DNA from: Candidatus Saccharimonadota bacterium
Lineage (GTDB): Bacteria > Patescibacteriota > Saccharimonadia > Saccharimonadales > UBA4665
DNA: 32,000 bases
NCBI GenBank assembly: GCA_002952755.1
Contig: CP025011.1
Coordinates: forward strand, 1,418,270 to 1,450,269
Direction: 5' to 3'
The position numbers were made by a program, and so were the translations under genes. The notes beneath the pieces were generated by a model. The model saw nothing but the letters and a program-made list of their open reading frames with translations, had not been told where the DNA came from and did not search any database. Below are positions 11,427 to 30,613 of this stretch, in pieces; the first letter of the stretch is position 1, and each line of letters opens with the position of its first letter.

Positions 11427-11879
11427 TTACGGTCCTGCCGGCGCTCCGGTGCCCGTATTGTTCACTTTGTCGAAGACAAACTTAACAACAACTTGTGCCA
11501 GAGCAACGATAACGAGGCCGATTACCGCATACACAATAGTGTTTTTGGCGCTGGTAATATTGCCTGAATCGCCCCCGGAAGTAATGTACTTAAAGCCGCC
11601 AAGCACGATCATGATAACGGCAATAATACCGACTACGATAGAGAAAATGTTTATAACCGTAGTAACAATATTCTGGACTTTGGTCGCCGATGATTGGTCG
11701 GCACTCGTATCAGCAGTACAAGTCTGGCCATTACCAGCAGTGCTCAACCCGGTGCCTTGAGATAAGCAGTCGCCGATAGTAGGAGCTGCATGCACCGCAA
11801 CAGGCACTAGCGCAGGCACAATGCTAAGCGCAAGAGTGGCGACGATAGCCGCGAAATGCTTACGAACGGTTTGTAACAT
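11427..11879 (-). CDS. T4SS pilin-like protein (TrbC/VirB2-type helical hairpin), paralog 1
   Basis: 150 aa. The signal peptide ends VAVHA|AP and is followed by a short Ser/Thr/Gly-rich ectodomain with 2 Cys. Then comes IFSIVVGIIAVIMIVLGGFKYITSGGDSGNITSAKNTIVYAVIGLVIVALAQVVV (helix-loop-helix). AAGGA lies 10 nt upstream of the ATG. Confidence 0.8.
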   Translation of the reverse strand: MLQTVRKHFAAIVATLALSIVPALVPVAVHAAPTIGDCLSQGTGLSTAGNGQTCTADTSADQSSATKVQNIVTTVINIFSIVVGIIAVIMIVLGGFKYITSGGDSGNITSAKNTIVYAVIGLVIVALAQVVVKFVFDKVNNTGTGAPAGP

Positions 11880-11959
11880 AATGAAATGTCCTTTCTTTGA
11901 ACGCTTTATTTACGTTATACCACAGGCATAAGCCGCATTACAATGGCACCGGAAAAAAA

Positions 11960-12409
11960 TTAGGATCTTGCTTTGGCCTTAACTGGGGGCGGGGTAGCAG
12001 TCGAGGTAGTGACGACATACTTAACGAGAATTTGAGCAAAGAACACCAATACCAAGCCAATAATTGCGTACGTAATAGTTTGCTTAGCCTTGGAAACAGC
12101 ATTGGCGTCACCCCCAGAAGTTATATAACGAAACCCGCCAACCATCATCATAATCACCGCAACAATACCGACTATGATACTAAGTATGTTCACTGCCGAA
12201 GCAATCGTATTGTCCAGGGATGGGCCGCTACTTACACACACTGCGCCAGTACCCGGATTTGTCCAGGTACCCCCCGAACCAATACAAGCCTGCTGCTTAG
12301 CAGCATCAGTAGAAGTGTCGGCCGAAGCTGGAGCGGGTAACAGCCAGTTGCTCGCAACGACGCTAATAAGAGTTACGCTTATGAGCAATATACGCCTGAA
12401 TATATACAT
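11960..12409 (-). CDS. T4SS pilin-like protein, paralog 2
   Basis: 149 aa. The signal peptide ends APASA|DT and the ectodomain has 2 Cys. The hairpin is ILSIIVGIVAVIMMMVGGFRYITSGGDANAVSKAKQTITYAIIGLVLVFFAQILV, followed by a Pro/Lys tail. Confidence 0.8.
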   Translation of the reverse strand: MYIFRRILLISVTLISVVASNWLLPAPASADTSTDAAKQQACIGSGGTWTNPGTGAVCVSSGPSLDNTIASAVNILSIIVGIVAVIMMMVGGFRYITSGGDANAVSKAKQTITYAIIGLVLVFFAQILVKYVVTTSTATPPPVKAKARS

Positions 12410-12419
12410 GTTGCCTCCA

Positions 12420-12833
12420 TTATTTCACGATATTAACAGCTAGGGCAAGAATTGCTTGGGCAAGAAGAATAACGAGCAGCCCAATGCCTGCAGCAATCAT
12501 GGTACGCCGGGCGTTCGCCGCTTTATTGGGATCGCCAGCGGCCGTAACATAATTAAAACCACCGACTATCATTAAAATTACCGCGGCGATACCTGAGACA
12601 GTCGACAGTATGAGCCCAACCTTGTACAAAATGCCGTTGGTGCCGCCAATAGGATTTTGCCCACTCGTCGTACAAACCGTTGAAGGGTTTTTGCCGGGCG
12701 TATTAGTCACACCTGTGTTCGAGCAGGCGTTTTGAAATGGATTAAAAGCTGCTGCTGAATGTGGTAAGAAAACAAAGACGATTCCAAACGCCAGTACAAA
12801 AACCGTAACCAGCAAGCGCGTATGTCGCAACAT
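12420..12833 (-). CDS. T4SS pilin-like protein, paralog 3
   Basis: 137 aa. The signal peptide ends HSAAA|FN and the ectodomain has 2 Cys. The hairpin is ILSTVSGIAAVILMIVGGFNYVTAAGDPNKAANARRTMIAAGIGLLVILLAQAIL. Confidence 0.8.
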   Translation of the reverse strand: MLRHTRLLVTVFVLAFGIVFVFLPHSAAAFNPFQNACSNTGVTNTPGKNPSTVCTTSGQNPIGGTNGILYKVGLILSTVSGIAAVILMIVGGFNYVTAAGDPNKAANARRTMIAAGIGLLVILLAQAILALAVNIVK

Positions 12834-12846
12834 ATTATATTACCTC

Positions 12847-13542
12847 CTATATATGACCAAGTGCATAGTTAACAATCGAGAAGGCAAGCATGGATACAAC
12901 CAGTCCAATAGCAGCATATATAATCGTGTTTTTCGTTTTTGCCATAGTATTAGGGTCGCCATTGGAAGTAACGTAGCGCAATCCGGCGATAATCAGCACT
13001 AATAACGCCACGCTGCCAAATAGCCCAATCACAATATTATAGAGGGAGAGAAGTGTAGTATTTGATGCCGCTGCATTAGGCAGGCTACTTAGGTCTACCC
13101 CGCTTGAGGTTTTGCCTGCACCTCCAGTTCCACCAAGACTCTCGCCAAGGAACCGTACGGCAGCAGCAGCGACGACGGTGATTCCTAGACCCACGAGGGA
13201 ATTAATAATGGTGCCGAGGGCATGCTTGGCTTTTTCGGGTTCACCCTGCGCGGTTATATATTGAAAGCCGGCATACACGATAAACCCGATGGCAACCAGA
13301 GCGCCGACACGGAGCAAAATATCGACAACACCAAGACCGACCAAACCAATCGAGCTAAGATCAAGATTACCGGTTGTATGATCAATAAAATGCGGGTCCA
13401 CCGAACAAAGACCGCTCGAATCTATTGTTACGTACTTCGCCCTGTCGAGATACTCAAACCACGAAGGGATCCCAAAGAAATTTCCTGGCTCCGGGCAGGG
13501 GCTCGCTCCAGCGGCAAAATGAGTCAATATATCCAAAAACAT
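12847..13542 (-). CDS. tandem double T4SS pilin-like protein (two hairpin modules in one chain), paralog 4
   Basis: 231 aa. Module a is LLRVGALVAIGFIVYAGFQYITAQGEPEKAKHALGTIINSLVGLGITVVAAAAV. Module b is IGLFGSVALLVLIIAGLRYVTSNGDPNTMAKTKNTIIYAAIGLVVSMLAFSIV. They are joined by a Gly/Ser linker. There is no obvious N-terminal signal peptide (MFLDILTHFAAGASPCPEPG...). Confidence 0.75.
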   Translation of the reverse strand: MFLDILTHFAAGASPCPEPGNFFGIPSWFEYLDRAKYVTIDSSGLCSVDPHFIDHTTGNLDLSSIGLVGLGVVDILLRVGALVAIGFIVYAGFQYITAQGEPEKAKHALGTIINSLVGLGITVVAAAAVRFLGESLGGTGGAGKTSSGVDLSSLPNAAASNTTLLSLYNIVIGLFGSVALLVLIIAGLRYVTSNGDPNTMAKTKNTIIYAAIGLVVSMLAFSIVNYALGHI

Positions 13543-13570: not shown

Positions 13571-14185
13571 TTATAGGATACCTCCGGGTGTAATCCACTG
13601 CAGGAAGGCCCACAAAAATCCAAAGGCTATAATCGCTATAACCGCATTAATAATACGCTGCTGAGCCGCTGCTGTGACATTCGGCTGGTCTGCCGAGGTG
13701 CTGTACTGAATACCCGCGACAATAATAGAAATGACAGCGGCAAGTACTACCACGACAGCCAATGTATTAATAATGGGATTTAGGTATTGGCGAACGATGC
13801 TGCACTGCTGCTGCGGGTCGAGTTCTGTTGGGCAATTGTTCCCACCTTTTGCGGCATTGTCAGTGCTGCCCGACGCGGTCTGAGCCTGGACGACATTCTT
13901 GGCTTGAAAAACGTCCCCGGAACAGTCGGATTGCGATACCCAGCCTTTCGCGGCATCCGATAGGGTGTAACATTTACCGGCTGCAAAGATGCCTTTACTC
14001 GGAGCTTTACCGTCCACGGGAAGGGTAGGAGTATCTGCGCATTGTGTAGTTATGCCAGCTAGTGCGTCAAAACATAATGCAGGACTGGCAGCGTGCACAA
14101 TGGCTGCCGGAAATACTGCCGACGGTACCGCGACTGCCGCACTGAAGAGGACTACTTGAATTATGTGTTTTACGCGCTGCAGCAT
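13571..14185 (-). CDS. T4SS pilin-like protein with enlarged 6-Cys ectodomain, paralog 5 (first gene of the operon)
   Basis: 204 aa. The signal peptide ends AIVHA|AS and is followed by a ~105-aa ectodomain with 6 Cys. The hairpin is INTLAVVVVLAAVISIIVAGIQYSTSADQPNVTAAAQQRIINAVIAIIAFGFLWAFL. Confidence 0.75.
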   Translation of the reverse strand: MLQRVKHIIQVVLFSAAVAVPSAVFPAAIVHAASPALCFDALAGITTQCADTPTLPVDGKAPSKGIFAAGKCYTLSDAAKGWVSQSDCSGDVFQAKNVVQAQTASGSTDNAAKGGNNCPTELDPQQQCSIVRQYLNPIINTLAVVVVLAAVISIIVAGIQYSTSADQPNVTAAAQQRIINAVIAIIAFGFLWAFLQWITPGGIL

Positions 14186-14469
14186 ATCTTCCGTTTTTTA
14201 GTTCTGCTTATTATAGAGTATAGGTCATCGCAGAATAATCACAAGCTACCCCGTATTTACACTTATCCCTACTCGCGTCATCCCGGATCTATTCTTACCG
14301 ACTTCATGTATTCCGCTGCTGGATGTCGGTCAAGTCCGGGAGGACCAAGAGTGGACGTTTTAAGACATGCGCGGGCACGAGCAGACGGGTATAAGCAACC
14401 GCATGCTCGTTGTATTAAATAGTGCCTGCTGCTACACTTTAACTTGAAAGCAAAGAGATACTACAAAGC
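14186..14469. promoter_or_regulatory. divergent control region between the pilin operon and the T4SS machinery operon
   Basis: 284 bp non-coding. On the minus strand a perfect TATAAT (14210..14215) sits 25 nt from the pilin ATG. On the plus strand TTGTAT-17 nt-TACACT (14410..14438) sits 31 nt from ATG 14470. An inverted repeat ACGAGCA...TGCTCGT (14377..14410) abuts the plus-strand -35 box. Confidence 0.35.
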
Positions 14470-14904
14470 ATGCGTCCTCGTCGATTAATCGTCATAGCTT
14501 CGCTGGCAACCATCATTTTAGTGGCCATTCCTTTGATTTTTATTCATAAGGGCGATGGTTATCGTGGTGTTTGTGACTCGCTACTAAAAGATATTCAAAA
14601 AAACGATGCTGCCAGCAGCTACAGTTTGCTTTCTGATACAGCCAAACGCACTGACTCGCTTTCTAGCTGGACGGGTAAAGTAAAGTTGCTCTACAACGTC
14701 TACTATAAAAGTACAGTTACGCCCGTAAAAAGTGTCGATTTAACCACCACTGTCAATAAAAAGAAGGGGCCGACGCGTATCGAGTACGTCTATACGGTTA
14801 CTAATCAATTTGCCACCTCCGATGCACTTTGCTACGCCACGAAGCCTTCAGGCTATAAAGTAGATTCTTTCTCGAGCGCAGTGAGACAGGAGGGCACTCA
14901 ATGA
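14470..14904 (+). CDS. small N-terminally membrane-anchored protein, unknown (possibly NTF2/DUF4878-like)
   Basis: 144 aa. The TM anchor is LIVIASLATIILVAIPLIFI. The following LLKDIQKNDAASSYSLLSDTAKRTDSLSSW pattern is typical of small anchored NTF2-like proteins (weak). The stop overlaps the next start. Confidence 0.65.
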   Translation: MRPRRLIVIASLATIILVAIPLIFIHKGDGYRGVCDSLLKDIQKNDAASSYSLLSDTAKRTDSLSSWTGKVKLLYNVYYKSTVTPVKSVDLTTTVNKKKGPTRIEYVYTVTNQFATSDALCYATKPSGYKVDSFSSAVRQEGTQ

Positions 14905-17900
14905 GGCGCCCTAAAGTTGCGAAAATTGGGCACTCGTTTCAGCAAGCCACTATCATTTTCGCCGCCCTAGTTGGAATCATTCTGCCTGCGACCGCACCTT
15001 TTCTCAAAACCAGCCATGCAGATGAGGTTGGAACGTCTTTTACTACTATAAATGGAGGCATATTCAAGGGTCCCGGCGGTGGAGTACCTATCGCTCATGC
15101 TATTGCATGTAAGGGGGGCATGATACCGGGACAGACGCTTGCGGCCACTAGTATAGATACGTCACTCGGCCGAAATCCGGCTGGCGATTCTGGCAACACC
15201 TTCAATGATGTCTATAATTCTACCGGTATGTATGCTGGCTTGCCCCGGCAGACAAACATCTTCGGATATCTGGGTCTTCCTGCTGCTGGCCGCGACCCTG
15301 GTGCCATACCCGAAGCAACAGCCACTGCATGGACATCATATATTTATGACCACTTTAACCAGCGAGTTACCACCCTAGGCCTTTTTCAAGGAGTAAATGG
15401 GCCTGGCCTGGACCCATGCGGATCAGGGCCAAACCGTCAATCAGATACGCCGCATCTTGTCATGATTCCAGTCGCTGACGATACTTGGGTCGCGTCGCAG
15501 TACAGCAATATTATTGCACAGGGAGGAGTTGGACAGCCAGCCCTGATTATCTTTCATCAAACCGGGCTGTCTCCTGCGGGTAACGCTGTTGGCTCCCTCT
15601 CATATTGGTACCCTGATTCCAGTAAAGGTATAGGCATGGCCTACAAGGGGCTGGACACTCAGGGTAAGCCTATCAACGGCGGCCCTCAGCAGAACGTTAT
15701 CGTTGAGGGCGTGTCCACCTCATCTAATCCTGTTGCTACAGGTAATGTCTCTAACGCTGAGTGGGTAGACGTGTCGACTATTAAAATACAGGTGAGCTAC
15801 AATGGCGGCGCACCTATTACAGAAACGTACATCAACCCTTCGTGGGATAATCATAGTTTCTATTTCCTGGCGAGCACTCCAAGCCCGACTCGTCAGGCCC
15901 TTATAGGCGCGGCCAAACAAGCCGATCCGTTCAGTAACGCCGCGCAAAACCAGGTACCTTTTATATGGATTCCGGACGCCGGCTTTACCGAACATAACGG
16001 CGAAGGTATTCTTAACTTATCCTACGATCGGCTCAGTCAGAGCCCGGGACTTGGTGACCTAAATCATAACATCGCCGGGTACACGTTTGCCAATCCGGCG
16101 TTTTATGATTACTCCCCCGGAAACCCGCCTGTGCCTGTTGGCCATGATGGAAAAAATCCGGCCCTTCCGGCAGGTCAGGTTATTACCAATAGCAGCCATC
16201 TTAATGGCGATATCTGGTTCTATGGCAGCAAAGCAAGCAATGCCTTTGTTACTGCTTGGACCAAAGGCAATGGCAACGAGCAGAACTATATTGGAGTCTA
16301 CACCTTTGACAATGCATCAAAGTTTTACGTGCACAGTGCCAAAGACTGTTCTGCGCTTGGCCAGATTAATTTAGGCACAACTATTGATAATATTACGCCG
16401 AACACAGAATTTCCGATACCGAAGTGGACCCTAGAGCCGCCGGGCCAATCCTGTCAGCCCCCTGCATATGGCAGCATCACCAAAGCATATGCAATTATTG
16501 ATGACCAAAAATTCACGGCTATCTCGGGCATTATAGCCGGCGCTGCTGCCAATTCGAATGGAAATAACCAGCAGTTGATATGTGATATCGGATGGAATCC
16601 TCTCACATGGCTGATTTGCCCGATCGCCCAAGGCGCCATCTCTCTGGCTGGTACGTTCGATACTGCCATCAACGACATGCTCAATATAAGCGTCAATACC
16701 TATCTAGACGAAAGTAAGCCCGGATCGGCAGGGGCAGATTTTTATGCAGCCTGGAACAGTTTCCGCGTTATCTCCATGGCGCTCATTGTAATTGCTGGGT
16801 TGATAATGGTGATGTCGCAAGCGCTGGGTGCCGAACTACTGAATGCTTACACCATCAAAAAAATGCTGCCTCGATTGCTCATGGCCGTCGTGTTCATTGC
16901 TGCTTCATGGCAACTACTTAAAGCGGCGGTAACTGCATCAGACGTGGTCGGCTACGGGACACGTTATCTTATCTACAAGCCATTTAGTACGGGGTTAGGT
17001 GCCGCCCACATTGGCGCAGGCACATCCGACGTTCTAGGAGTGTTAGGGGGTGCGGCTGTTGTTGGCCTAGGTATTTTTGGCATCTTGAGCTTTGCACTTA
17101 CTGGTCTACTTGCGTCACTGGTTGGATTCGTGTTGCTTACGTTCCGGGAAATGGTCGTTTTATTTGCGATTGCAATATCTCCTGTCCCCATCGCACTCTC
17201 TATCTTGCCGAATACCCGTAAGGGCTGGAAGATTTGGGGGGATACTCTGAGCGGCGCACTCCTGATGTTCCCGATTGTGGCTGGCTTTATCGCGATAGGC
17301 CATGTCTTTGCTCAAGTCGCCGCAAAAGTAAATGCCGGCGTGATCGGCCAACTCATATTTATCATCGCCTACTTTGCACCATACTTCCTTATTCCTTTAG
17401 CCTTCCGTCTGGCTGGCGGCCTGGTAGCCACAGTAGGTGGAGTAGTGAACGACCGCAGCAAGGGTGCCTTTGACCGTCTTAAGAATTATCGCTCCAACAA
17501 ATTCAAAACCAACATGCAAAAGGTTGCTGAAGGACGGCGCTTTAACGAGCTTGGTCAATTCCAAAGTAATAACCTGCTTGCACGGACAGCTAACCGGGGT
17601 ATTCGCGGGCTCAACCGGGGTATTAGTGGTTTTAATGATACAACTGAGGTCGCCGGTGCTTTCGGTGCAGCAGAAGCAAAATTCGGTTTCTTAACGAATC
17701 GGGGAATACGCCAAGCTGCCCTAAGCCAACATCGTGACATGGTTGGCGCCAAATACGCTCAGACCGGACGGGCGCAGGCGACCAAGGAAGACGACCTACT
17801 GCACCAAGCACGAACGTTCGGCAGCGAAGAAGAAGCGCGTGCCGGCCTCGCTGCCCGCTTCCGAAATATGAATTACGACGTCAACACTGACGAAGGACGC

Positions 17901-18872
17901 CGCAACATGGAAGCAGCCCTTTCTGCCGCCCGGGCAGCAGGCGGATACAGCAGGGCATACCAACGCTACTCATTGCGTCGCCTTGCAGCTACAGGAACTG
18001 GCTATGGTGACGTGGGCGACATGCTGCGTGCAGTAAGTGACGTGGCCGGAGATAATCGCGCCGAAGCTTCTGCCTTGCTCGGCGAATTAAATGCTGTTTC
18101 TGGCAATGTAGGCCGTCACGACCTCAAGCTTGGGTACGGTACTCAAATGCGCTTGTACGACCGGCTTCAGGCAGCCGGCCACCTGACCGAGGAAGAAGTT
18201 GACGATGCGGTGTATACAGCCGATAAAGACCTCGATAGCGTCAGCCGTATTCGCGACAAAAAGGTCTCCGTCGAAAACCTGAGCAAATCAACGGCACGGG
18301 TGTTTAGGCGCCTGGAGGTTCAGCGCGATACTGCCACTGACCCTGTTGTCATACAACAAGCTCGCGACGAACTGGATCGAGCAACGGGCCTTATCAACAA
18401 GGCGGAATCAGCCTTTGCATATGGATCTACGACGAATGTACAGGCTACTAATGATAACGTCGGCCGTGCGACCAGCGGCGCAAATACCGGCCTGGTAGTC
18501 GAAAACGCCGCGTATAACCCCGCGCTTCCGCCCTCACCGACAAATCCGCAAACTATATACGTTCCCGCCACTGGCCGGCGACGTGTGCAAATGGAGGCTA
18601 ACCCTGTGGAAACAAAGATTAACCCAACAACTGACCGACCTGAAATTACCTACGAGATCGCTCGCTATCCCGCAGGACATGCGTTGGCGGGGCAGGAAAT
18701 TATCGACGAATTTGGTACTCCAACACTATATAGAGATCCTGACACTGGCCGCCCCGTTCTCAGACAAAATCCAGCTACGAATGCTGTCACACAGCGTTCT
18801 GCGGAAAACCAACGTATCTACGGCGTAGGCACGGGCACGGGCGACCCTCAAAACAACGGTCTTATAACCTAA
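14901..18872 (+). CDS. giant VirB6/TrbL/PrgH-like polytopic T4SS membrane protein with large extracytoplasmic N-domain and charged C-domain
   Basis: 1323 aa with an ATGA overlap with the upstream gene. The signal peptide is ..FLKTSHA|DE and is followed by a ~560-aa Cys-containing exodomain. Six or seven TM helices lie around aa 620-880 (FRVISMALIVIAGLIMVM, LLMAVVFIAASWQLL, MVVLFAIAISPVPIALSILP, LLMFPIVAGFIAIGHVF, LIFIIAYFAPYFLIPLAF), then a ~440-aa Arg/Asp/Ala-rich tail. The family call rests on architecture and context, not alignment. Confidence 0.7.
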   Translation: MRRPKVAKIGHSFQQATIIFAALVGIILPATAPFLKTSHADEVGTSFTTINGGIFKGPGGGVPIAHAIACKGGMIPGQTLAATSIDTSLGRNPAGDSGNTFNDVYNSTGMYAGLPRQTNIFGYLGLPAAGRDPGAIPEATATAWTSYIYDHFNQRVTTLGLFQGVNGPGLDPCGSGPNRQSDTPHLVMIPVADDTWVASQYSNIIAQGGVGQPALIIFHQTGLSPAGNAVGSLSYWYPDSSKGIGMAYKGLDTQGKPINGGPQQNVIVEGVSTSSNPVATGNVSNAEWVDVSTIKIQVSYNGGAPITETYINPSWDNHSFYFLASTPSPTRQALIGAAKQADPFSNAAQNQVPFIWIPDAGFTEHNGEGILNLSYDRLSQSPGLGDLNHNIAGYTFANPAFYDYSPGNPPVPVGHDGKNPALPAGQVITNSSHLNGDIWFYGSKASNAFVTAWTKGNGNEQNYIGVYTFDNASKFYVHSAKDCSALGQINLGTTIDNITPNTEFPIPKWTLEPPGQSCQPPAYGSITKAYAIIDDQKFTAISGIIAGAAANSNGNNQQLICDIGWNPLTWLICPIAQGAISLAGTFDTAINDMLNISVNTYLDESKPGSAGADFYAAWNSFRVISMALIVIAGLIMVMSQALGAELLNAYTIKKMLPRLLMAVVFIAASWQLLKAAVTASDVVGYGTRYLIYKPFSTGLGAAHIGAGTSDVLGVLGGAAVVGLGIFGILSFALTGLLASLVGFVLLTFREMVVLFAIAISPVPIALSILPNTRKGWKIWGDTLSGALLMFPIVAGFIAIGHVFAQVAAKVNAGVIGQLIFIIAYFAPYFLIPLAFRLAGGLVATVGGVVNDRSKGAFDRLKNYRSNKFKTNMQKVAEGRRFNELGQFQSNNLLARTANRGIRGLNRGISGFNDTTEVAGAFGAAEAKFGFLTNRGIRQAALSQHRDMVGAKYAQTGRAQATKEDDLLHQARTFGSEEEARAGLAARFRNMNYDVNTDEGRRNMEAALSAARAAGGYSRAYQRYSLRRLAATGTGYGDVGDMLRAVSDVAGDNRAEASALLGELNAVSGNVGRHDLKLGYGTQMRLYDRLQAAGHLTEEEVDDAVYTADKDLDSVSRIRDKKVSVENLSKSTARVFRRLEVQRDTATDPVVIQQARDELDRATGLINKAESAFAYGSTTNVQATNDNVGRATSGANTGLVVENAAYNPALPPSPTNPQTIYVPATGRRRVQMEANPVETKINPTTDRPEITYEIARYPAGHALAGQEIIDEFGTPTLYRDPDTGRPVLRQNPATNAVTQRSAENQRIYGVGTGTGDPQNNGLIT

Positions 18873-18950
18873 TTTACGACCTTAAGATGGCAGAGATAAC
18901 GCCGCTCATCTACCCATACTGGCTCATATAGTAATTACATAAGCACTATA

Positions 18951-18980
18951 TTGACATTATACCAATCATGTGTTTATAAT
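18951..18980 (+). promoter_or_regulatory. near-consensus sigma-70-type promoter inside the T4SS operon
   Basis: TTGACA (18951..18956), an 18-nt spacer, then TATAAT (18975..18980), 36 nt upstream of ATG 19016, within the only sizeable gap (143 bp) of the operon. Confidence 0.5.
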
Positions 18981-19015
18981 TTAGATATGAAAAATTCACT
19001 CTTAGGCTGGTCGAC

Positions 19016-20893: not shown

Positions 20894-20958
20894 CTAAGCC
20901 TGTAGTCTTTTTAATAACACTACAAGCAGCCCTTACTCTCGCGTATACTATGTAAGTA

Positions 20959-22227: not shown

Positions 22228-22236
22228 AAGAGGGAT

Positions 22237-23250: not shown

Positions 23251-25154
23251 TGGCACGTAAAAAACAACTTGACCCTGTTGCATTGGCACAGGCCCAGCAG
23301 CAGCGCGAACAGCAAGAAGTGGCTGCCGCTTTCCAAAAGGGTGTCACGGCGCTGCGTGATTTTATCGCGCCAAGCTCCCTGGAATTTAATAGTAGTTATT
23401 TTCACCTCGGAACCCGTATGGCACGCACCTATTATGTATACGGCTACCCGCGCCAACTATACACCGGTTGGATGAGCAGCATGGTGAACCTCGATGAAGT
23501 AATTGATATTTCACTATTTATTTACCCGGTCGAAAGCCAGGTCGTGCTCGACAACTTGCGTAAAAAAGTCACCCAGCTGGAAGCCGGCATCCAGATCGAC
23601 TCCGAAAAAGGTCGGGTACGCGACCCGCAAAAACAGGCCGCCATCCTCGACGCCGAAGAAATGCGTGATAAGTTGCAGGTGGGCGAAGAGCGCTTCTTCC
23701 GCTTTGGTTTCTACTTTACCGTCTACGCCGGCAGTCTCGAGGAACTCGAATTTATCAGCCACAAGGTGGAATCGATGCTCGGCCAGCAACTGGTCTTTTC
23801 CAAACCGGCATCATCACAGCAAGAGCAGGGACTCAACAGTACTGTGCCGCAATTTAGTGACCAGCTACAGATCCGCCGCAACATGAGCACCGGGGCGATT
23901 AGCACTAGCTTCCCATTCACCAGCGCCGACTTAAGCCAAGACAACGGTATTCTATATGGCATTAATATGCACAATTCCGGCCTGGTGATCTTCGACCGCT
24001 TTAGCCTGGAGAATGGTAACTCGGTCGTCTTCGCCAAGTCTGGTGCCGGTAAATCGTTTACCGTCAAACTTGAGGCGTTGCGCAGCATGATGATGGGCAC
24101 CGAAATCTTCATCATCGACCCCGAAAATGAGTACGAACGGATGTGCGATGCCGTTGCTGGTTCCTATGTGCGACTCAGTCTTAACTCGGCTACGCGTATC
24201 AACCCGTTCGATCTCCCCAGGGTAGTCGACACCGAAGAGGCCGACAATGCTTTGCGCAGCAACCTCATCACCTTGCACGGTTTGTTCCGTTTAATGATGG
24301 GCGGCGCCCAAGCGCAGATGCTTGGCGGACAGCAAGTGCTGGCTCCCGCTTTGTCTCCGGTAGAGGAATCTGATCTGGATGCGGCACTCATCGAAACTTA
24401 CGCCCGCGCCGGCATCACCAACGATCCGCTCACGCATCAAGGCTACCCGCCAACGATTGCCGACCTCTACGACACACTCCTGCACATGGGCGGCACCGGC
24501 CCGCAATTAGCTCAGCGCCTGCGCAAATATACCACTGGAACATTCGCTGGCATTTTCTCGCAGCAAAGCAACATCGACATTAACAACCCGCTCGTCGTCT
24601 TTAACATCCGCGACCTCGAGGACGAGTTGCGACCAGTGGCCATGTACATCGTACTTAATTACATCTGGAACAAGACCAAAACCGACCGGCGCAAGCGTAT
24701 CCTGATCGTGGATGAGGCCTGGCAGCTCATGAAGTACGAAGATTCGGCGAACTTCCTGTTTAGCCTCGCGAAACGCGCTCGCAAATACAACCTTGGTATT
24801 ACCACCGTCACTCAAGACGTCGAAGACTTTATGGGTTCGCGCATGGGTCGCGCTGTTGTCGCTAACGCCAGCATGCAGTTCCTGCTGAAGCAATCCCCAA
24901 CTGCAGTCGACGTGCTGTCTGATGTTTTCAAGCTCACCAGCGAAGAGAAAAAACGTTTGAGCCAATTCCCGGTAGGGCAAGGCCTCTTCTTTGCCGGCCA
25001 AAACCACGTCCACATCCAGGTGGTAGCCAGCCCGACTGAAACGACACTCATTACGACTAACCCAACGCAGGTACAGCAAATCCAGTCGGGCGCGATGGAT
25101 CAAGTGCAAGGCACGATCGACCTTGCCAATCAGCTAACGCCCGGGAGCTTATAA
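23250..25154 (+). CDS. virB4: VirB4-family T4SS ATPase (middle and ATPase domains)
   Basis: LRDFIAPSSLEFNSSYFHLGTRMARTYYVYGYPRQLYTGWMSSM is the VirB4 middle block. Walker A is VFAKSGAGKSFTVK (about 24036) and Walker B is RILIVDEAWQL (about 24700). The C-terminal blocks TTVTQDVEDF and LLKQSP follow. Confidence 0.92.
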   Translation: MARKKQLDPVALAQAQQQREQQEVAAAFQKGVTALRDFIAPSSLEFNSSYFHLGTRMARTYYVYGYPRQLYTGWMSSMVNLDEVIDISLFIYPVESQVVLDNLRKKVTQLEAGIQIDSEKGRVRDPQKQAAILDAEEMRDKLQVGEERFFRFGFYFTVYAGSLEELEFISHKVESMLGQQLVFSKPASSQQEQGLNSTVPQFSDQLQIRRNMSTGAISTSFPFTSADLSQDNGILYGINMHNSGLVIFDRFSLENGNSVVFAKSGAGKSFTVKLEALRSMMMGTEIFIIDPENEYERMCDAVAGSYVRLSLNSATRINPFDLPRVVDTEEADNALRSNLITLHGLFRLMMGGAQAQMLGGQQVLAPALSPVEESDLDAALIETYARAGITNDPLTHQGYPPTIADLYDTLLHMGGTGPQLAQRLRKYTTGTFAGIFSQQSNIDINNPLVVFNIRDLEDELRPVAMYIVLNYIWNKTKTDRRKRILIVDEAWQLMKYEDSANFLFSLAKRARKYNLGITTVTQDVEDFMGSRMGRAVVANASMQFLLKQSPTAVDVLSDVFKLTSEEKKRLSQFPVGQGLFFAGQNHVHIQVVASPTETTLITTNPTQVQQIQSGAMDQVQGTIDLANQLTPGSL

Positions 25155-25165
25155 GGTCATTATCT

Positions 25166-27766
25166 ATGGCAACGTACGACGATGACCATGACGATGACCA
25201 TGACACCAAAACCGGACCCAGTGCTGACGAGCTACATAACAGCGTATATGGCTCCGGAATCGAACACCCGCTTGGTGACATGGAGACCAAGGCCTACACC
25301 GCCAGAGACCTCCGTGCCCAAGAAGAAAAGCAGATGGGTATCACACCCGGCAACCTCCCGGATCTACGCACAGATGAGGGGCCACGCGGAAGTGGAGCCC
25401 CCGACCTCGCTGCACAAGGGAGAGACGACCGCCGACGCGACGCCAAAACCGCTAAAACTGCTCAAGGTATACCAAGCACCGACCTTCGAGATGCAGAAGA
25501 GGGCGGCAATCGACGCCCCAAAGTCGACTGGCTCAACGGTGGTTTTTATAAGGGCAAGGCAGGCGACCAGCAACCCGCAGGGGGAGCGAAAAGCTTCTAT
25601 AGCCGGCATAAAAAAGCAGTCATCTTTGGCAGTCTGCTGAGCGCCGGGGCGGTTTTTTTTGTAGGTATTTTGCTCATTATCGTTCTTCTGCTTGCTCCGT
25701 TCAAAAACGTGCACTTTGCAACCGTCTTGCGCTCCGTTGGCATGGCCCGTTTTACCTATGTCATGAACAAGCAGTTCTCACGCACCATTTTTGATGCCGC
25801 CGTGCTCACCGATAACAGCACCGGCAGATTCGTACCACCAAAGGATAGTCTCTTTTACAAAGTGCTGGGCATTACACCGCAAAAAAATCTCCTGGAGCTT
25901 GGCAATCAGAATAAACTCAAATTCGACTTTACCGGTGAATCGAGATTCGGTGATAAAACCGGGGGATTGCTTGGCCGGACTAACACCTTTAATGGCGTGG
26001 TTATAGACGGAAAGGGCTATTACCTCAACGACTATGCTAAGAGGATGTATGGTGTCAATTTCGACGATCTCTCTACCGTCTCGCTTACAGGCCGGACAGA
26101 GCAAACAAGAGTTTTGTCTGCGTTTGCCAATGACGTGCAGAGCAAACTATCCGATATGCTGCAGCTTAAGACTCGCCGTTTTAGATGGGGCGTATACAAG
26201 GGGTTCTACCAAGCAACCGGCATCAAACTGATTAAATGGTATAACAGAGGAAAAGATTATAGTAACCTGAACGACGCAGAAGCTCGGGCGAAAAATGTCG
26301 ACGATACCATAAAACAGGTAGAAGGTGAGGACGCCAAAGCGCGTTCGACAGGCGTATCTGAAATAGACAACGAGGCGCAACAGGAGAGGACTGATACCAT
26401 AAACGCAACCAAGACTGGCGATACTCCTGGGCAAGTAAGAAGCAAACTGGCCAATCGTCTCCGAACGGCAAGTGACGTCTCTACGGCATTCGCTGCCGTC
26501 ACGATGGCCTGTGTGCTGCACGGCCTAGCGAACGCCTTCGACGGATCTCAACAGATGCGCGAACAAAATGTGGCACGATTCGGGGCCGAGATCCAGACTG
26601 CCGCCGATCAGCAAAAGTACGGCGACACTACTGCCCAGGCTGTGGGTGCCGAAAATGCTATGTGGACTGATGCACAGAAATCAGCCGGCTACAAAAGCGC
26701 AACTGGTCGAGCTTTGTCTTCTGACGACCAGAAGGAATTAGCAGGCGTGCCGAGCGTTCTTCCTCCCAATCAGAAATTCGCAGATATCATTAGCCTGGTC
26801 GATAAAGTCATGACCGGGGGTTTCATCACCGGCTTCATACCCGGCCTCAATCAAGTACATGATTACCTGGCAAATGTCGGATGTGACGCAGTACTTAACC
26901 CTTACTCTCAGGCTCTGATTAGTGGGGGGGAGATAGCTCTGGCAGTTTACTCGGCCGGGTCTACGGAAGGCATTGTCGCCGCGATCCGTGCGGCCATTTC
27001 ATCTGGGTTGCAGCTGGGTGGAAGCGTCGGGTTGGGGGAGCTACTGGGTTTGTTTGTAGATAATGTTATCCATAGTGTTGCCAACCTCGACTTCTCAGGT
27101 ATCCAAACAGGTTCGGCACGCTTTGATCAGGGACTTGTAGCAACCGATTACATGCAGCAGGTAGGCAATCGCCAGATTACGTTTGGCGCTCCAATGAGCG
27201 TCGATGATGCAAACGCCGCCCAGCAGCAAGCCATGGCCGACTTGCATGCCCAAAATGCGCAGCAATCGTTTACAGAGCGCTATTTTGCCATGGACAATCC
27301 ATTCTCGCTCAGCAGCAATGTAGCTGCCGTTATGCCGACGACATTTAGCGGCATGGCCGATTCGATTCGTGGCGGCATTATGTCGACCTTATCGGTCATC
27401 AGCTCGCCTCAGCGATTATTTGGAAGTATCGCAAGTGTCTTTACGTCGCATAACCACGCTTTTGCTGCAGCAACGATAAAACGCTCAGATTCGTTTGGTG
27501 TAGATGAGTGGGGTTGGACAACAGACGAACTCAGCAAAGTAGATAACGATCCGAGCTTCGACCTGACCCAGCTGATTCAAACAGTCGAACCAAACCTGGC
27601 TACACTCAACACCAAATACGGCCCATGCTACGACAGTGGTTACGTGCTCCAGACCAACAAACCCTCACAGTGCACAAGAGGTTTCCTCGCAAGCGACGAG
27701 GCGCTTCACTGGCGCTCATACATGGCGCAGACATATGCTGCGACACACTTAACAGGATCTATCTAG
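25166..27766 (+). CDS. 866-aa bitopic membrane protein: charged cytoplasmic N-tail, one TM, ~670-aa external domain; T4SS-associated, unknown
   Basis: The N-terminus MATYDDDHDDDHD is followed by an Arg/Lys/Asp-rich ~160 aa, then the TM AVIFGSLLSAGAVFFVGILLIIVLLLAPF and a large hydrophilic domain. A Gly-rich amphipathic stretch (GGEIALAVYSAGSTEGIVAAIRAAISSGLQLGGSVGLGELLGLF) and a C-terminal Cys pair are present. Confidence 0.7.
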   Translation: MATYDDDHDDDHDTKTGPSADELHNSVYGSGIEHPLGDMETKAYTARDLRAQEEKQMGITPGNLPDLRTDEGPRGSGAPDLAAQGRDDRRRDAKTAKTAQGIPSTDLRDAEEGGNRRPKVDWLNGGFYKGKAGDQQPAGGAKSFYSRHKKAVIFGSLLSAGAVFFVGILLIIVLLLAPFKNVHFATVLRSVGMARFTYVMNKQFSRTIFDAAVLTDNSTGRFVPPKDSLFYKVLGITPQKNLLELGNQNKLKFDFTGESRFGDKTGGLLGRTNTFNGVVIDGKGYYLNDYAKRMYGVNFDDLSTVSLTGRTEQTRVLSAFANDVQSKLSDMLQLKTRRFRWGVYKGFYQATGIKLIKWYNRGKDYSNLNDAEARAKNVDDTIKQVEGEDAKARSTGVSEIDNEAQQERTDTINATKTGDTPGQVRSKLANRLRTASDVSTAFAAVTMACVLHGLANAFDGSQQMREQNVARFGAEIQTAADQQKYGDTTAQAVGAENAMWTDAQKSAGYKSATGRALSSDDQKELAGVPSVLPPNQKFADIISLVDKVMTGGFITGFIPGLNQVHDYLANVGCDAVLNPYSQALISGGEIALAVYSAGSTEGIVAAIRAAISSGLQLGGSVGLGELLGLFVDNVIHSVANLDFSGIQTGSARFDQGLVATDYMQQVGNRQITFGAPMSVDDANAAQQQAMADLHAQNAQQSFTERYFAMDNPFSLSSNVAAVMPTTFSGMADSIRGGIMSTLSVISSPQRLFGSIASVFTSHNHAFAAATIKRSDSFGVDEWGWTTDELSKVDNDPSFDLTQLIQTVEPNLATLNTKYGPCYDSGYVLQTNKPSQCTRGFLASDEALHWRSYMAQTYAATHLTGSI

Positions 27767-27773
27767 GAGTAGT

Positions 27774-29300
27774 ATGATGATCGGCACCTTCCGCCAAAAG
27801 CTCACATCACTCTATAAACGCTCAGAAAGCGCACGCAGCCTTATAGGCAGCATTCTGGCCGTCCTCATTCTTTTCAGTTCGAGCAATGCGCCCGTCTTCG
27901 CCGCTTTTGCCCCACCCACAACCGAACCACAGTCGGCGCCAGCCGACGTCCAAAGCTACCATCTCGACACCGTTCTGTATAGTATTACGAACTGTAACGG
28001 AGCGGCTACAGGTGCCGATGCATCACTTACCATTAAACCGGCTTCCGGCGTATGGGTAAGTCACGTGCCGCCGCCCTATACGCTTGAACAATTCATGATC
28101 CAGGTCCTCAAAGATATTGCCGCAAAAACAGGTGCACCGGAAAGCGATGTCGTAACCGAGCAACACGTAATTGCGTTAGTTGCTTTTGCTTACGGGGAAG
28201 GTGGTAATATAACGAATCTGGACATTTGGAATCCTTTGAACACGGGGCTAAACAATCCCGACCTGGTAGATGGCTCTCATAGCTCCAGCGGACTGCAGTC
28301 ATTCAAGTCATTCGATGCCGGAGTTGAGGCGACCGCCATAACCATGACCACCCCGAACCAAGACCGCCTCGCTCAAATTCTTACGCACCAGTCTTCAACG
28401 GCTATCGATTTTATGCATACCTTAACGTATTATCAGAATTATCCGCATAACTTCGAATGGGCAAAAGCGTCTATGCCACCCCATCAGGACTCATACTATG
28501 CCGAGCGTGTACAGCTCGTGCAACAAGTTACTGCAAATTACCGCGATATTGCCAGCCTTCAACTTGGCCCGCCAGGCTATACAGAAACCACACTACCGCA
28601 TAAGCCAGAACTTTTGGTATACAACCCGAGCGGGGCTGCCACGGGCGGACCTGTCGGAACACCCGTCGGCACTCCCGTCGTAAACGCTTCCTGCGCAACA
28701 GGGACCGACCCAGGCAGTACTGCCGCCAGTGCAAATGGGCTAGGCATAGCCGCCCGGGCAATCCAGGACTCCTGGCTGACCAATGCCCAAGGCGCAACCC
28801 TAAAACCCAAGCCAGAATATAGCTCGGACATATGCCAGTACAATAAGGACTACTGCAGCGGATCTGTAGCAGGTCCCACCGCTGCGGACTGCGGTATCTT
28901 TGTAGCAACGATTATGCATGCCACAGGGTCCGACCCCCACTATCCTGGAGTAGGGACGAGCAACCAAGCTAACTATGTACTCAAGCATCCAGAGTTATAC
29001 GCAGTTGTTGCCCTCCAACTAAAGACCACCGCACCTCTACTGCCTGGCGATATCCTATTATTAAACGCTGGAAGCTATATAGATAGTAACGGAAAACTAA
29101 TCGTACCGGCGGGTGCCGGCGGTTCCGGGCATACGATGATCTGGACCGGCCCGCAGCCGTCAACCAAAACCAACGTAGCAAGCGCCTCACTGGATAGCCG
29201 GATGCCAAACCTTGGGGTTATGGACACCCCTAGCTTAAATGACGATCCCCGCGGATACTATCTGGCAGTAAGATTTAAAGGCAGTATTCAGCAGCTTTAA
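27774..29300 (+). CDS. secreted or anchored cell-wall hydrolase: unknown N-domain plus C-terminal NlpC/P60 (CHAP-like) cysteine peptidase domain
   Basis: The signal/anchor is LIGSILAVLILFSSSNAPVFAAFA. The C-terminal papain-like triad context is TAADCGIFVATIMH (Cys), LLPGDILLLN and GSGHTMIWTG (His). A GPVGTPVGTPV linker separates the domains. AGGAG lies upstream of the ATG. Confidence 0.7.
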   Translation: MMIGTFRQKLTSLYKRSESARSLIGSILAVLILFSSSNAPVFAAFAPPTTEPQSAPADVQSYHLDTVLYSITNCNGAATGADASLTIKPASGVWVSHVPPPYTLEQFMIQVLKDIAAKTGAPESDVVTEQHVIALVAFAYGEGGNITNLDIWNPLNTGLNNPDLVDGSHSSSGLQSFKSFDAGVEATAITMTTPNQDRLAQILTHQSSTAIDFMHTLTYYQNYPHNFEWAKASMPPHQDSYYAERVQLVQQVTANYRDIASLQLGPPGYTETTLPHKPELLVYNPSGAATGGPVGTPVGTPVVNASCATGTDPGSTAASANGLGIAARAIQDSWLTNAQGATLKPKPEYSSDICQYNKDYCSGSVAGPTAADCGIFVATIMHATGSDPHYPGVGTSNQANYVLKHPELYAVVALQLKTTAPLLPGDILLLNAGSYIDSNGKLIVPAGAGGSGHTMIWTGPQPSTKTNVASASLDSRMPNLGVMDTPSLNDDPRGYYLAVRFKGSIQQL

Positions 29301-29317
29301 GATGAGTAGGGGGCGCT

Positions 29318-29935
29318 ATGCAGCAACACAGTAGCAAACGAATTTTATATATAGGCGTCGGATGTCTTATTGGCGTCTTGGTCATCCTTGGTTTTGCCTT
29401 TAGCAAACGGTCTTCGGCGACCATAACCGTTGCCATTGCCCCTCAGAGTGCAACAATCACTATTAATGGGAAGAAGGGCCATAGTGGCATGAATAATGTC
29501 TCTCCTGGGCCGGTAACCGTCACTGCTGTCCATCCAGGTTTTGCCACGCTATCGCGCACTGTTATTGTACAGAAGGGCACTGACGGCTACGTAGGACTGG
29601 TGCTAACGTCAAACAGCGCAGCAACTAATAATTGGTATGAAACGCACCCTGCGGACCTTCAGGCCAGTAGCGTTATCTCGAGCAAACAGTCAGACATCAA
29701 TGCCAGTCAATCGGTAAAAAACACCCCCATCATCCAAATACTTCCGTATATTGGCCCTGGTTTTGAGTGGCGTGTCGACTACGGCGTTAACCCTTCAGAG
29801 AAGGCGGCGCAGACTCCTGCGATTTACATAAACGCACTAACGCCGCGAGGGCGGTCAGATGCCTTATTCTGGATTAAGAGTCGCGGCTACGACCTGGCAA
29901 CAATGAAGATTATTTTTACCGCTAACCCAGAGTAA
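29318..29935 (+). CDS. membrane-anchored protein with PEGA-like beta-sandwich domain
   Basis: The TM anchor is ILYIGVGCLIGVLVILGFAF. It is followed by TITVAIAPQSATITINGKKGHSGMNNVSPGPVTVTAVHPGFATLSRTVIVQKG, which resembles the PEGA pattern. Confidence 0.6.
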   Translation: MQQHSSKRILYIGVGCLIGVLVILGFAFSKRSSATITVAIAPQSATITINGKKGHSGMNNVSPGPVTVTAVHPGFATLSRTVIVQKGTDGYVGLVLTSNSAATNNWYETHPADLQASSVISSKQSDINASQSVKNTPIIQILPYIGPGFEWRVDYGVNPSEKAAQTPAIYINALTPRGRSDALFWIKSRGYDLATMKIIFTANPE

Positions 29936-29944
29936 GGAACTAGT

Positions 29945-30613
29945 ATGCCCCCACAATCACCTAATCAAGCCCAAGCACGCAATCGACGATCACTACTGCT
30001 ACTAGCAGCGGCCATCATCGTACTCGTAACCCTAGCCGTTGTCGGCATACACCTCTGGCAAACGTACGTAATTGACAAAAAAGTGACATTAGCTGCAGCC
30101 AGCGGGACAAACATCACGCTCGGCAAGATCCGCGGTACGAATAATAACAGCGTAACCATGGGAGCCATCCTCGCCCACACCAGCACAAACAAACAGGTCC
30201 GCCTTGCGCCCGGGTCGTACGCCGTAACGTTCGGTGGCGCAGACTATCAAGACCAAACAGAAGCAATCGCGGTGAGTTCTACTATGACCATCGCTACGCC
30301 CAACCTCAGCTATAGCACCGCCAAACTGCAAGATCTGCTGGCACAGCAGGCAGCCGATATCCATCCGGTGGTAACGGGCATCGCCAGCCTGTCCGGCTAC
30401 ACCATTGCGTACGAAAAACTATATGTCAGAGGTGAGTGGTATGCAGCAAAACTAACTCCCGTTGATACAAGCACCCAAGATACATTGCGCGTCATCCTGC
30501 ATAAAGAAAATGGCCGATGGCAAGTCGCCGCAAGCCCGGGCATCGTATTTTATAGCGGCGACTACCCCTCGATTCCGGTCAGCGTCATTCGCGACATCGA
30601 CAATAGCCAATAA
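29945..30613 (+). CDS. membrane-anchored protein, unknown (beta-sandwich-like N-part, possible NTF2-like C-part)
   Basis: The TM anchor is LLLLAAAIIVLVTLAVVGIHLW. It contains LAPGSYAVTFGGADYQDQTEAIAV and a C-terminal GEWYAAKLTPVDTSTQDTLRVILHKENGRWQVAASPG. AAGGA lies upstream of the ATG. Confidence 0.6.
   Translation: MPPQSPNQAQARNRRSLLLLAAAIIVLVTLAVVGIHLWQTYVIDKKVTLAAASGTNITLGKIRGTNNNSVTMGAILAHTSTNKQVRLAPGSYAVTFGGADYQDQTEAIAVSSTMTIATPNLSYSTAKLQDLLAQQAADIHPVVTGIASLSGYTIAYEKLYVRGEWYAAKLTPVDTSTQDTLRVILHKENGRWQVAASPGIVFYSGDYPSIPVSVIRDIDNSQ

Follow-up and report, generated by a model that had tools for sequence, protein, structure and literature searches.

The question raised by this locus is what kind of machine it encodes, and whether that machine moves DNA, delivers proteins, takes up host molecules or assembles a filament. 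It occupies positions 11,427 to 30,613 of a 32,000-nucleotide stretch of contig CP025011.1 (assembly GCA_002952755.1, positions 1,418,270 to 1,450,269 of the forward strand) from a Candidatus Saccharimonadota bacterium; the whole stretch is referred to here as the window. The original prediction, made from the sequence alone, described a type IV secretion system (T4SS)-like locus in two divergent operons, most of whose parts were thought to be undescribed. We conclude that the locus is very probably a chromosomal, non-conjugative T4SS of a Saccharimonadales (Saccharibacteria/TM7) bacterium, for which a general mechanism can be proposed. The expectation of novelty did not hold, since loci of this type have been published (PMC7427843, PMC10633639, PMC12102498) and the T4SS of Patescibacteria has been reviewed (PMC12857230). 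The locus is a new example of an already described system and, by conserved gene order, the counterpart of SEML1_0004-0019 of Southlakia epibionticum. Among the possible means by which ultra-small epibionts exploit their hosts, the Patescibacteria T4SS is the leading candidate.

An open reading frame (ORF) scan of the window recovered all 15 predicted ORFs at identical coordinates, five on the minus strand (14185 down to 11427) and ten on the plus strand (14470-30613; Table 1). A VirB4 search with one genome per species confirmed 488 relatives, and all counts given below out of 80 loci refer to the best 80 of these. The best 80 VirB4 proteins showed 83-93% identity and are almost all labelled Saccharimonadales/Saccharibacteria (metagenome-assembled genomes), the remainder being bins labelled otherwise. 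These labels agree with the epibiotic host from the Candidate Phyla Radiation that had been supposed at the outset.

The motor core consists of a PrgI/VirB3-like protein, a TrsD-like protein corresponding to the split-off N-terminal domain of VirB4, and the VirB4 ATPase itself, and matches to PF12666, NCBIfam TrsD and conju_CD1110 bear out all three as originally assigned. VirB4 has intact Walker A (AKSGAGKS) and Walker B (ILIVDE) motifs and additionally matches the models Mbov_0397 (254 bits) and P-loop_TraG (95.9 bits). The TrsD-like protein has a low-complexity N-terminus, and its gene overlaps virB4, located directly downstream, by 1 nt. PrgI is composed of an N-terminal domain with two transmembrane (TM) segments (residues 25-59) and a long Pro/Ala/Thr-rich tail. 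PrgI was found in 75 of the 80 loci with identities of 33-66%, the TrsD-like protein in 78 with identities of 61-85%. Both families also meet in a single 349-aa 'PrgI family protein' on Embleya plasmid NZ_CP108778 (locus L085, 8365-9414), which matches the PrgI profile at residues 17-100 and the TrsD profile at residues 141-207; since one protein matches both profiles, PrgI and TrsD are fused here within a genuinely conjugative locus.

The proposal of five VirB2/TrbC-like pilin ORFs on the minus strand was confirmed with PF18895 (T4SS_pilin), which matches all five, four of them above the gathering cut-off of 26.6 and the fifth 0.5 bit under it. The array comprises six PF18895 domains with pairwise identities of 25-39%. 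All pilins combine a variable Cys-containing region with a conserved two-helix core (motif GGFxYxTSxGDP), and four of the five ORFs start with an AxA-type (Sec) signal peptide. According to the TM map, pilin 1 features a Sec signal peptide, a variable N-region with a Cys pair and the two-TM core, while pilin 5, encoded by the first gene of the minus operon, carries a long Cys-rich N-terminal region. The 231-aa ORF contains two pilin domains and four TM helices, with no obvious signal peptide, and aligns to two adjacent genes that most relatives keep separate, among them L015, L054, L023 and L006. Because the same fusion is present as a 225-aa protein in the nearest relative, L082, and in L086, the two lineages with the same whole layout, the fusion is real. 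The separate-gene counterparts are located at 3120-3803 in L015 and at 3433-4118 in L054, and the N-terminal half of the 231-aa protein shows a conserved C...FFG.P.W..YL...C motif. In the related loci, profile counts yielded 242 pilin ORFs across 46 loci. No invertible or repeated DNA able to drive pilin variation was detected, the sole repeat being the paralogy of pilins 1 and 2 (104 nt at 71%), and the divergent intergenic region contains only weak promoter-like matches and no inverted repeats suggesting a switch.

On sequence grounds, the 1323-aa ORF can be accepted as VirB6-like, as first suggested, because four lines of evidence converge: its topology, a conserved TM bundle, TrbL/VirB6 matches of its orthologues and a profile alignment to an Embleya protein. 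A signal or anchor sequence is followed by a hypervariable exo-domain (about residues 36-600, ~580 aa), the TM bundle (about 600-860, ~6-8 helices), which is conserved in 57 related loci, and an Arg-rich cytoplasmic C-domain (860-1323, ~460 aa). The protein of the window has no direct match in Pfam, NCBIfam or the PDB, and a profile search of the PDB with the TM alignment returned nothing meaningful. PF04610 (TrbL/VirB6) was matched by 20 of 52 orthologous TM regions (best E 1.3e-5), far above any other family. The TM profile aligned by hhalign to the product of the gene that directly precedes PrgI on the Embleya conjugative plasmid (Prob 94.5%, E 7e-8).

Order and position of these genes are fixed. 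Searches with tblastn, ORF mapping and iterated profiles gave the order comF, hsp20, pilin array (opposite strand), VirB6-like, variable slot, PrgI, TrsD, VirB4, 866-aa family, hydrolase, one to two PEGA proteins, recF, dnaN and dnaA, and the same layout and position were found in at least 60 related species. In the relatives mapped, ORFs of the size and position of dnaN and dnaA follow recF, their identity being taken from the gene order of S. epibionticum ML1. The original prediction was to be abandoned if the pilin, PrgI and VirB6 assignments failed in profile searches or if a relaxase and a coupling protein lay nearby. The assignments hold, and neither gene was detected in Pfam/NCBIfam scans of the window ORFs or with the Embleya type IV coupling protein (T4CP) and relaxase as tblastn/phmmer queries against the window and the regions within 10 kb of VirB4 in the 80 loci. 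An integrase or repeat boundary was likewise not found in the 32 kb. Because the position beside recF is fixed and relaxase, coupling protein and integrase are lacking, the locus is a core chromosomal feature near the origin and not an acquired element. The reading as an isolated VirB4 gene was rejected, since the pilin and PrgI families are supported by Pfam.

Table 1 Features of the T4SS locus and its immediate flanks, in order of window position
Feature	Length (aa)	Position	Strand	Evidence or remark
comF-type phosphoribosyltransferase gene		9804-10508		left flank; two genes from pilin array
hsp20		10589-11074		left flank
VirB2-like pilin 1	150	11427-11879	-	PF18895 50.5 bits; TrbC 28.2 bits; Mbov_0395 pilin-like E 2.7e-9
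VirB2-like pilin 2	149	11960-12409	-	PF18895 57.5 bits; Mbov_0395 family E 8e-8; 39% identity to pilin 1
VirB2-like pilin 3	137	12420-12833	-	PF18895 35.8 bits; Mbov_0395 family E 2e-8
Fused double pilin	231	12847-13542	-	PF18895 75.4 bits in two stretches; Mbov_0395 family 53.2 bits (cut-off 40)
VirB2-like pilin 5	204	13571-14185	-	PF18895 26.1 bits (cut-off 26.6); Mbov_0395 family E 5e-9; aligned core motif
Divergent intergenic region between pilin operon and VirB6 unit		14186-14469	.	sequence read
Small N-anchored protein	144	14470-14904	+	one TM at residues 7-25
Extended VirB6-like protein	1323	14901-18872	+	topology; orthologue TM regions; hhalign
Sigma-70 consensus promoter, TTGACA-18-TATAAT		18951-18980	+	12/12 match, only one in 20 kb; ahead of 625-aa gene
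Slot protein	625	19016-20893	+	soluble, helix-rich, no TM, no signal peptide
PrgI/VirB3-like protein	422	20959-22227	+	PF12666 47.6 bits (cut-off 27), residues 5-92
TrsD-like protein, split-off VirB4 N-terminal domain	337	22237-23250	+	NCBIfam TrsD E 1e-6; N-terminal parts of VirB4 models; precomputed PF26593 TraC-like
VirB4 ATPase, CD1110/MPF_FATA type	634	23250-25154	+	NCBIfam conju_CD1110 361 bits (cut-off 325)
Bitopic protein (q7)	866	25166-27766	+	TM at 157-175
Anchored peptidoglycan hydrolase (q8)	508	27774-29300	+	family profile: lysozyme and NlpC/P60
N-anchored PEGA/prealbumin-like beta-sandwich protein	205	29318-29935	+	PEGA 20.9 bits (cut-off 20.8)
N-anchored paralogue	222	29945-30613	+	profile overlaps that of 205-aa family
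recF		30622-31680		right flank

Compared to the nearest relative, L082, the proteins of the window differ widely in conservation. VirB4 and the TrsD-like protein share 96% and 92% identity, PrgI 65% and the pilins 48-66%. The VirB6-like protein is 47% identical overall, with 74% in the TM bundle, 26-31% in the exo-domain and 46-58% in the C-domain. The 625-aa protein (31%) and the 144-aa protein (32%) are the fastest-evolving proteins of the locus, against 96% for VirB4. The window thereby separates fixed parts (VirB4, TrsD, PrgI and the VirB6 TM bundle) from fast-evolving or modular ones (pilin N-regions, VirB6 exo-domain, hydrolase modules and the slot gene).

The modular parts include the enzymes that act on the cell wall. 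The 508-aa protein shows no direct match in Pfam. A profile of 23 family sequences matches the phi29 gp13 lysozyme (3csr, E 1.7e-9) as well as the NlpC/P60 enzymes Spr, MepS and CwlO (E 1e-5 to 7e-5), and the orthologues match NLPC_P60 in 13 and Phage_lysozyme2 in 10 of 23 cases. Residues C373 and H453 are invariant in the family, and E142 is nearly so. Because the family profile matches both enzyme types and these residues are kept, the predicted product is a two-domain VirB1 analogue composed of a phage-tail-type lysozyme and an NlpC/P60 endopeptidase. The NlpC/P60 hydrolase named in the original prediction was thus found again via the family profile, but its description was incomplete, as the lysozyme domain is also present. 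Orthologues variously bear Amidase_3, SLT or glucosaminidase domains.

The 866-aa protein, of which family members are encoded in 71 of 80 loci, consists of a disordered cytoplasmic N-terminus, a single TM segment and a large helical exo-domain. For its core, no relative was found in Pfam or the PDB, the latter also searched with the family profile, and a homologue search seeded with the family alignment found no further sequences. An AlphaFold2 model from a 16-sequence alignment was unusable (pLDDT 56, pTM 0.55), with no Foldseek match to the PDB below E 0.6. Orthologues carry hydrolase modules, namely M23 (7), VanY (4), CHAP (1) and GDSL (1), none of which is present on the copy in the window. 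Peptidoglycan-hydrolase modules are thus shuffled among species on two conserved carriers, the 866-aa and 508-aa families.

The two small proteins at the end of the plus-strand block are PEGA/prealbumin-like paralogues, as the suggested anchored beta-sandwich proteins imply. In the 205-aa family, PEGA was matched by 16 and CarboxypepD_reg by 15 of 32 members, and the 222-aa protein combines a beta-sandwich N-domain with an additional C-domain. The 144-aa protein at the other end has family members in 8 of 80 loci. Three of nine of these match PF05223 (MecA_N, an NTF2-like domain; best E 6.9e-6), and in the PDB the family gave a weak match to YoeB/IseA (E 0.01) and matched no VirB8-like structure. 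These sequence matches suggest that it likely belongs to the NTF2-like fold class, which is that of VirB8-like proteins (PrgL/TraM/TcpC in conjugative MPF_FATA systems), making it a candidate VirB8-like or SEML1_0012-like accessory. TM prediction upheld the topologies given earlier for the bitopic 866-aa, the soluble 625-aa and the small N-anchored proteins. The estimate that about 4,300 codons lack a recognisable family has to be reduced: several proteins gain a fold class (lysozyme, NlpC/P60, PEGA/prealbumin-like, NTF2-like), while the 866-aa core and the 625-aa protein remain without a fold match.

The most variable site of the locus lies between virB6 and prgI. Plus-strand intergenic distances are, from 5' to 3', -4, 143, 65, 9, -1, 11, 7, 17 and 9 nt. 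Seven junctions overlap or are shorter than 20 nt, in line with the compact operon first described; the two long gaps, however, border the 625-aa gene, one on each side. Since the first of them contains a perfect promoter, the plus-strand block probably represents two or three transcription units rather than a single operon. Of 59 loci, 27 have no ORF in the slot, and the others have between one and six. Together with the 625-aa protein, the 43 ORFs found in slots form 39 sequence clusters, and nearly all of these proteins lack TM segments. Metabolic genes occupy some slots, namely oppositely oriented S-adenosylhomocysteine hydrolase and PfkB kinase genes and co-oriented riboflavin genes (L030 3712-7665, L076 5629-7880, L029 5510-6940), and the virB6-prgI junction therefore tolerates insertions. 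A 12/12 promoter also precedes the orthologue in L082 (about 9100-9135), and occupied slots usually open with a strong promoter, at least 10/12 matches following the VirB6 stop codon in about 10 others. A recurrent TATACT was observed ~15-35 nt upstream of prgI in related loci and 14 nt upstream in the window.

The 625-aa slot protein matched only itself among 5.8e9 clustered proteins and four relatives among 1.84e9 representatives; all three relatives with readable context are located between VirB6 and PrgI of T4SS loci. Its composition is unusual, with 2 Lys (0.3%), 68 Arg (10.9%) and 49 Asn codons. Among the 729 proteins with 200 or more residues encoded in the 80 related loci, none has so low a lysine content (median 4.6%, minimum 0.39%). 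Of the nine proteins poorest in lysine in this set, four are slot proteins without detectable homology to the 625-aa protein, and a 258-aa ORF near recF in L038 (17149-17925) is almost lysine-free as well (0.39% Lys). As hhalign gave no link between the 625-aa family and the other lysine-poor slot proteins, a single family of slot proteins is not proposed. An N-terminal 'PE...PG.MT' motif common to slot proteins was considered as a secretion signal and dropped because it rested on a single weak match (E 0.056). AlphaFold2 prediction of the 625-aa protein from four sequences gave an unusable model (pLDDT 52, pTM 0.28) and, in Foldseek, generic coiled-coil matches only (E >=0.05).

It is conceivable, if rather unlikely, that the 625-aa protein and perhaps other slot occupants are T4SS cargo delivered into the actinobacterial host. 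The idea derives from the absence of a signal peptide and TM segment, the conserved perfect promoter, the slot position in three relatives, the fast evolution and the near-absence of lysine. Lysine avoidance might serve to evade lysine-directed tagging (e.g. pupylation) in the host, an idea that draws on the lysine-poor A chains of AB toxins as an analogy. If true, the 625-aa family would be the first candidate effector family of a Patescibacteria T4SS. The virB6-prgI slot, the features of the 625-aa protein and the shuffling of hydrolase modules were not found described in the papers searched.

For the machine as a whole, we propose the following general mechanism. VirB4 hexamers would dock on PrgI, TrsD and VirB6 in the membrane, extract Sec-inserted membrane pilins and polymerise them to form a filament or conduit of the VirB2 type. 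The hydrolases would open the peptidoglycan for crossing of the epibiont wall and might also attack the host wall, and the filament or channel would reach the host. The fast-evolving surface parts, i.e. pilin N-regions, VirB6 exo-domain and hydrolase modules, would set host contact and specificity. Filament assembly is probably the core activity. By analogy, it is the best supported one, because the set of parts is that of pilus biogenesis in model systems and a coupling protein is not linked. Translocation of protein cargo to the host, also considered by analogy, is a tentative possibility; transfer of cytoplasmic substrates normally requires a coupling protein. DNA conjugation is unlikely because neither a relaxase nor a coupling protein is linked. 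A motor that stays constant while surface and wall-cutting parts change fast would fit a host-contact machine under diversifying pressure.

To our knowledge, no T4SS other than that of Patescibacteria is known to be essential for growth of the cell that carries it, and the requirement is known from S. epibionticum alone. In a transposon sequencing (Tn-seq) study of this species, SEML1_0006-0019 were essential for epibiotic growth (Wang 2023, PMC10633639), and the gene table of that study scores all genes of the cluster except SEML1_0012 as essential. Tn-seq and a synteny survey, both proposed as checks of the original prediction, have thus already been performed on relatives.

Several points weigh against the proposed reading. 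The function is carried over from a single cultured relative and remote model systems, so that expression, assembly, pilus and substrate are all matters of analogy. The VirB6-like protein and the hydrolase of the window lack direct Pfam matches, their support being transitive via orthologues. With E values of up to 1 allowed, hmmscan against Pfam still did not recover the precomputed TrbL_3 (PF19590) labels on VirB6 orthologues (L082 5017-9027, L088 2165-5041), and these labels were not used as primary evidence. No VirB8-like component was firmly identified in the locus, the NTF2-like signal of the 144-aa protein is weak, and the structure predictions of the 866-aa and 625-aa proteins are of low confidence. 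Finally, a coupling protein gene may lie in another part of the source genome of roughly 1.45 Mb; S. epibionticum has one, which is non-essential (PMC12102498).

Among the alternatives, a T4SS or pilus channel that mainly imports or exchanges host molecules (nucleotides, lipids, amino acids, signals) survives best and is still unlikely. Uptake via the T4SS pilus has been raised in a review (PMC12857230), and the lack of a linked coupling protein and the existence of DNA-importing T4SS relatives, e.g. Ced/Ted, would be compatible with it. However, small-molecule import is known for no T4SS, Pfam/NCBIfam scans found nothing transporter- or binding-protein-like in the locus, and the wall hydrolases and the strongly promoted soluble slot protein suit an outward machine at least equally well.

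The neighbourhood of comF, which lies close to the pilin array and is syntenic in relatives, invites the reading as a DNA uptake or release machine for competence or nucleotide scavenging, similar to ComB, Ced or the gonococcal genetic island (GGI). In S. epibionticum, however, comF (SEML1_0021) is non-essential (PMC10633639), and cells lacking comEC lose transformation yet stay viable, in contrast to the essential T4SS (PMC12857230, PMC10633639). Competence and recombination genes do co-localise with T4SS genes in another class of Patescibacteria (PMC12102498). The weak secondary NCBIfam matches of the window to CedB and CedD span the generic P-loop region only and score 52 bits (cut-off 700) and 25 bits (cut-off 600), respectively, and we regard a DNA uptake or release machine as very unlikely.

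A conjugative element (remnant of a plasmid or of an integrative and conjugative element, ICE) moving DNA between cells can be dismissed as extremely improbable: VirB4, PrgI and VirB6 are homologous to conjugative MPF_FATA parts and the Embleya plasmid shows the order VirB6-PrgI-VirB4-T4CP-relaxase-NlpC/P60, but mobile-element genes are absent from the window and the Embleya T4CP and relaxase queries came back empty, the G + C content is uniform across the locus, the position beside recF/dnaN/dnaA is fixed in at least 60 species, and only 15 virB4 genes have a relaxase nearby in a survey of the phylum (Quinonero-Coronel 2025, PMC12102498).

The remainder of the window is in keeping with a chromosomal region of even composition (about 50% G + C), with a sole dip to 43% at 5-7 kb. 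This stretch (5001-7000), the only one of low GC in the window (43% against about 51%), contains a Phd/YefM antitoxin and PIN toxin pair (6106-6896), adjoined by a 188-aa ORF without family match, and may be a small acquired island. A Fur-family regulator (PF01475, 63.6 bits; positions 3-413) is truncated by the left window edge, and NUDIX, HTH-HAD, 2'-5' RNA ligase and HD protein genes complete the region, whose genes outside the locus are housekeeping genes, tRNAs and the toxin-antitoxin pair. An Rfam scan of the window found four tRNAs and nothing else (Arg-GCG, Ser-CGA, Ser-GCU and Ser-UGA, at 7228-7472, 9010-9102 and 9614-9701); the tRNA-Ser beside comF has the same place in S. epibionticum.

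The interest of the window rests mostly on two leads and less on the locus itself. One is the lysine-poor, strongly promoted and locus-specific soluble protein as possible cargo, the other the monoderm kin of the pilins. In NCBIfam, a family from Mycoplasma ICEs, 'Mbov_0395 family pilin-like conjugal transfer protein', is matched by each of the five pilin ORFs, and one match exceeds the cut-off. The Pontibacillus sp. ALD_SL1 megaplasmid NZ_CP062975 (L084, 5483-15036) carries, in the gene order of the Saccharibacteria system, genes for two Mbov_0395-type pilin-like proteins and a large membrane protein, followed by TrsD-like and CD1110 VirB4 genes and the gene of an M23 hydrolase of 1051 aa. 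Its TrsD-like protein and VirB4 match the Saccharibacteria profiles with E 4e-39 and E 5e-139, respectively. No relaxase or T4CP is annotated near this locus, and flagellar and chemotaxis genes are located on its flanks. The Mbov_0395 matches and the Pontibacillus pilin-TrsD-VirB4 layout point to VirB2-like pilins in monoderm MPF_FATA relatives, which, as judged from sequence, weakens the idea that Patescibacteria borrowed their pilins from diderm systems. The monoderm ICE and Firmicute kin of these 'Gram-negative-like' pilins bear on the origin of the system, and in the literature searched no paper draws this link.

Bordetella Ptl and Brucella VirB share with the window the lack of a linked coupling protein, and VirB4-dependent pilin handling is expected in both and in the Agrobacterium VirB2 T-pilus system. 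All three are diderm MPF_T systems and possess a VirB7/9/10 core, VirB5, VirB8 and VirB11, none of which was firmly identified in the window, where the 144-aa protein is a candidate VirB8-like component; Pfam/NCBIfam scans of the 15 ORFs gave no family of VirB7, VirB9 or VirB10, as the original prediction had stated, nor of VirB5 or VirB11.

Conjugative MPF_FATA systems of Firmicutes and Actinobacteria (CD1110-family VirB4; Tn916/CTn-type, pCF10 Prg and the Embleya plasmid) have VirB4 proteins that share 28-37% identity with that of the window, VirB7/9/10 are absent from both, and the order PrgI-TrsD-VirB4-hydrolase matches that of MPF_FATA systems, in agreement with the monoderm-type order recognised at first. 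The Embleya plasmid in particular shares the order VirB6-PrgI-VirB4...NlpC/P60 and the homology of the VirB6 TM region (hhalign 94.5%). Conjugative systems, however, possess a T4CP and a relaxase, move DNA and, in the classic examples, use adhesins instead of pilins. The window lacks T4CP and relaxase and additionally features the pilin array, a split TrsD, the 866-aa scaffold and PEGA proteins. Mycoplasma ICEs share the Mbov_0395 pilin family and the Mbov_0397 VirB4 model (254 bits), but are mobile and reside in wall-less hosts. In Pontibacillus, the proteins in VirB6, PrgI and 866-aa positions show no detectable similarity to those of the window. A pilin array of six domains and a chromosomal site close to the origin are absent from Mycoplasma ICEs and from Pontibacillus alike.

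The closest likeness is to Patescibacteria. TM7x has a VirB4/VirB6 region with an array of small secreted proteins (McLean 2020, PMC7427843), and the survey of the phylum describes an MPF_FATA-related VirB4 clade with TrsD as the commonest partner, PrgI, VirB6 and VirB2 arrays of 2-11 genes in origin-proximal position (PMC12102498). The window agrees with both in the MPF_FATA-related VirB4, TrsD, the PrgI-type VirB3, VirB6, the VirB2 array, the absence of a relaxase and the location near the origin. VirB1 homologues are rare in the survey, while the hydrolase of the window is recognisable solely via its family profile. The survey considers that the pilins were possibly co-opted from diderm systems, whereas those of the window match a monoderm ICE pilin-like family.

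The S. epibionticum cluster has a Gram-positive-like composition with essential pilins and without coupling protein or relaxase, fold assignments having been made by structure (PMC10633639). In strain ML1, an exported NTF2-like gene separates two VirB6-like genes, whereas the window has one VirB6-like gene with a much larger exo-domain and, unlike ML1, the anchored NTF2-like candidate upstream and the soluble 625-aa slot protein. The 866-aa protein is the positional counterpart of SEML1_0007, for which only gene order was compared; the 1113-aa protein of ML1 ends in a DD-peptidase domain that is absent from the 866-aa protein. The ML1 hydrolase features two lysozyme-like domains and that of the window one, and two pilin genes of the six-member array are fused in the window. 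The 205-aa protein is the counterpart of SEML1_0005, and the 222-aa protein is the positional counterpart of SEML1_0004 (annotated prealbumin-like and BT0923-like). Between the same flanks, dnaA-dnaN-recF on one side and hsp20-comF-tRNA-Ser on the other, both genomes encode in the same order the PEGA-type proteins, the lysozyme/cysteine-peptidase hydrolase, the large bitopic protein, VirB4, the TrsD-like protein, PrgI, the VirB6-like component and, on the opposite strand, six pilins.

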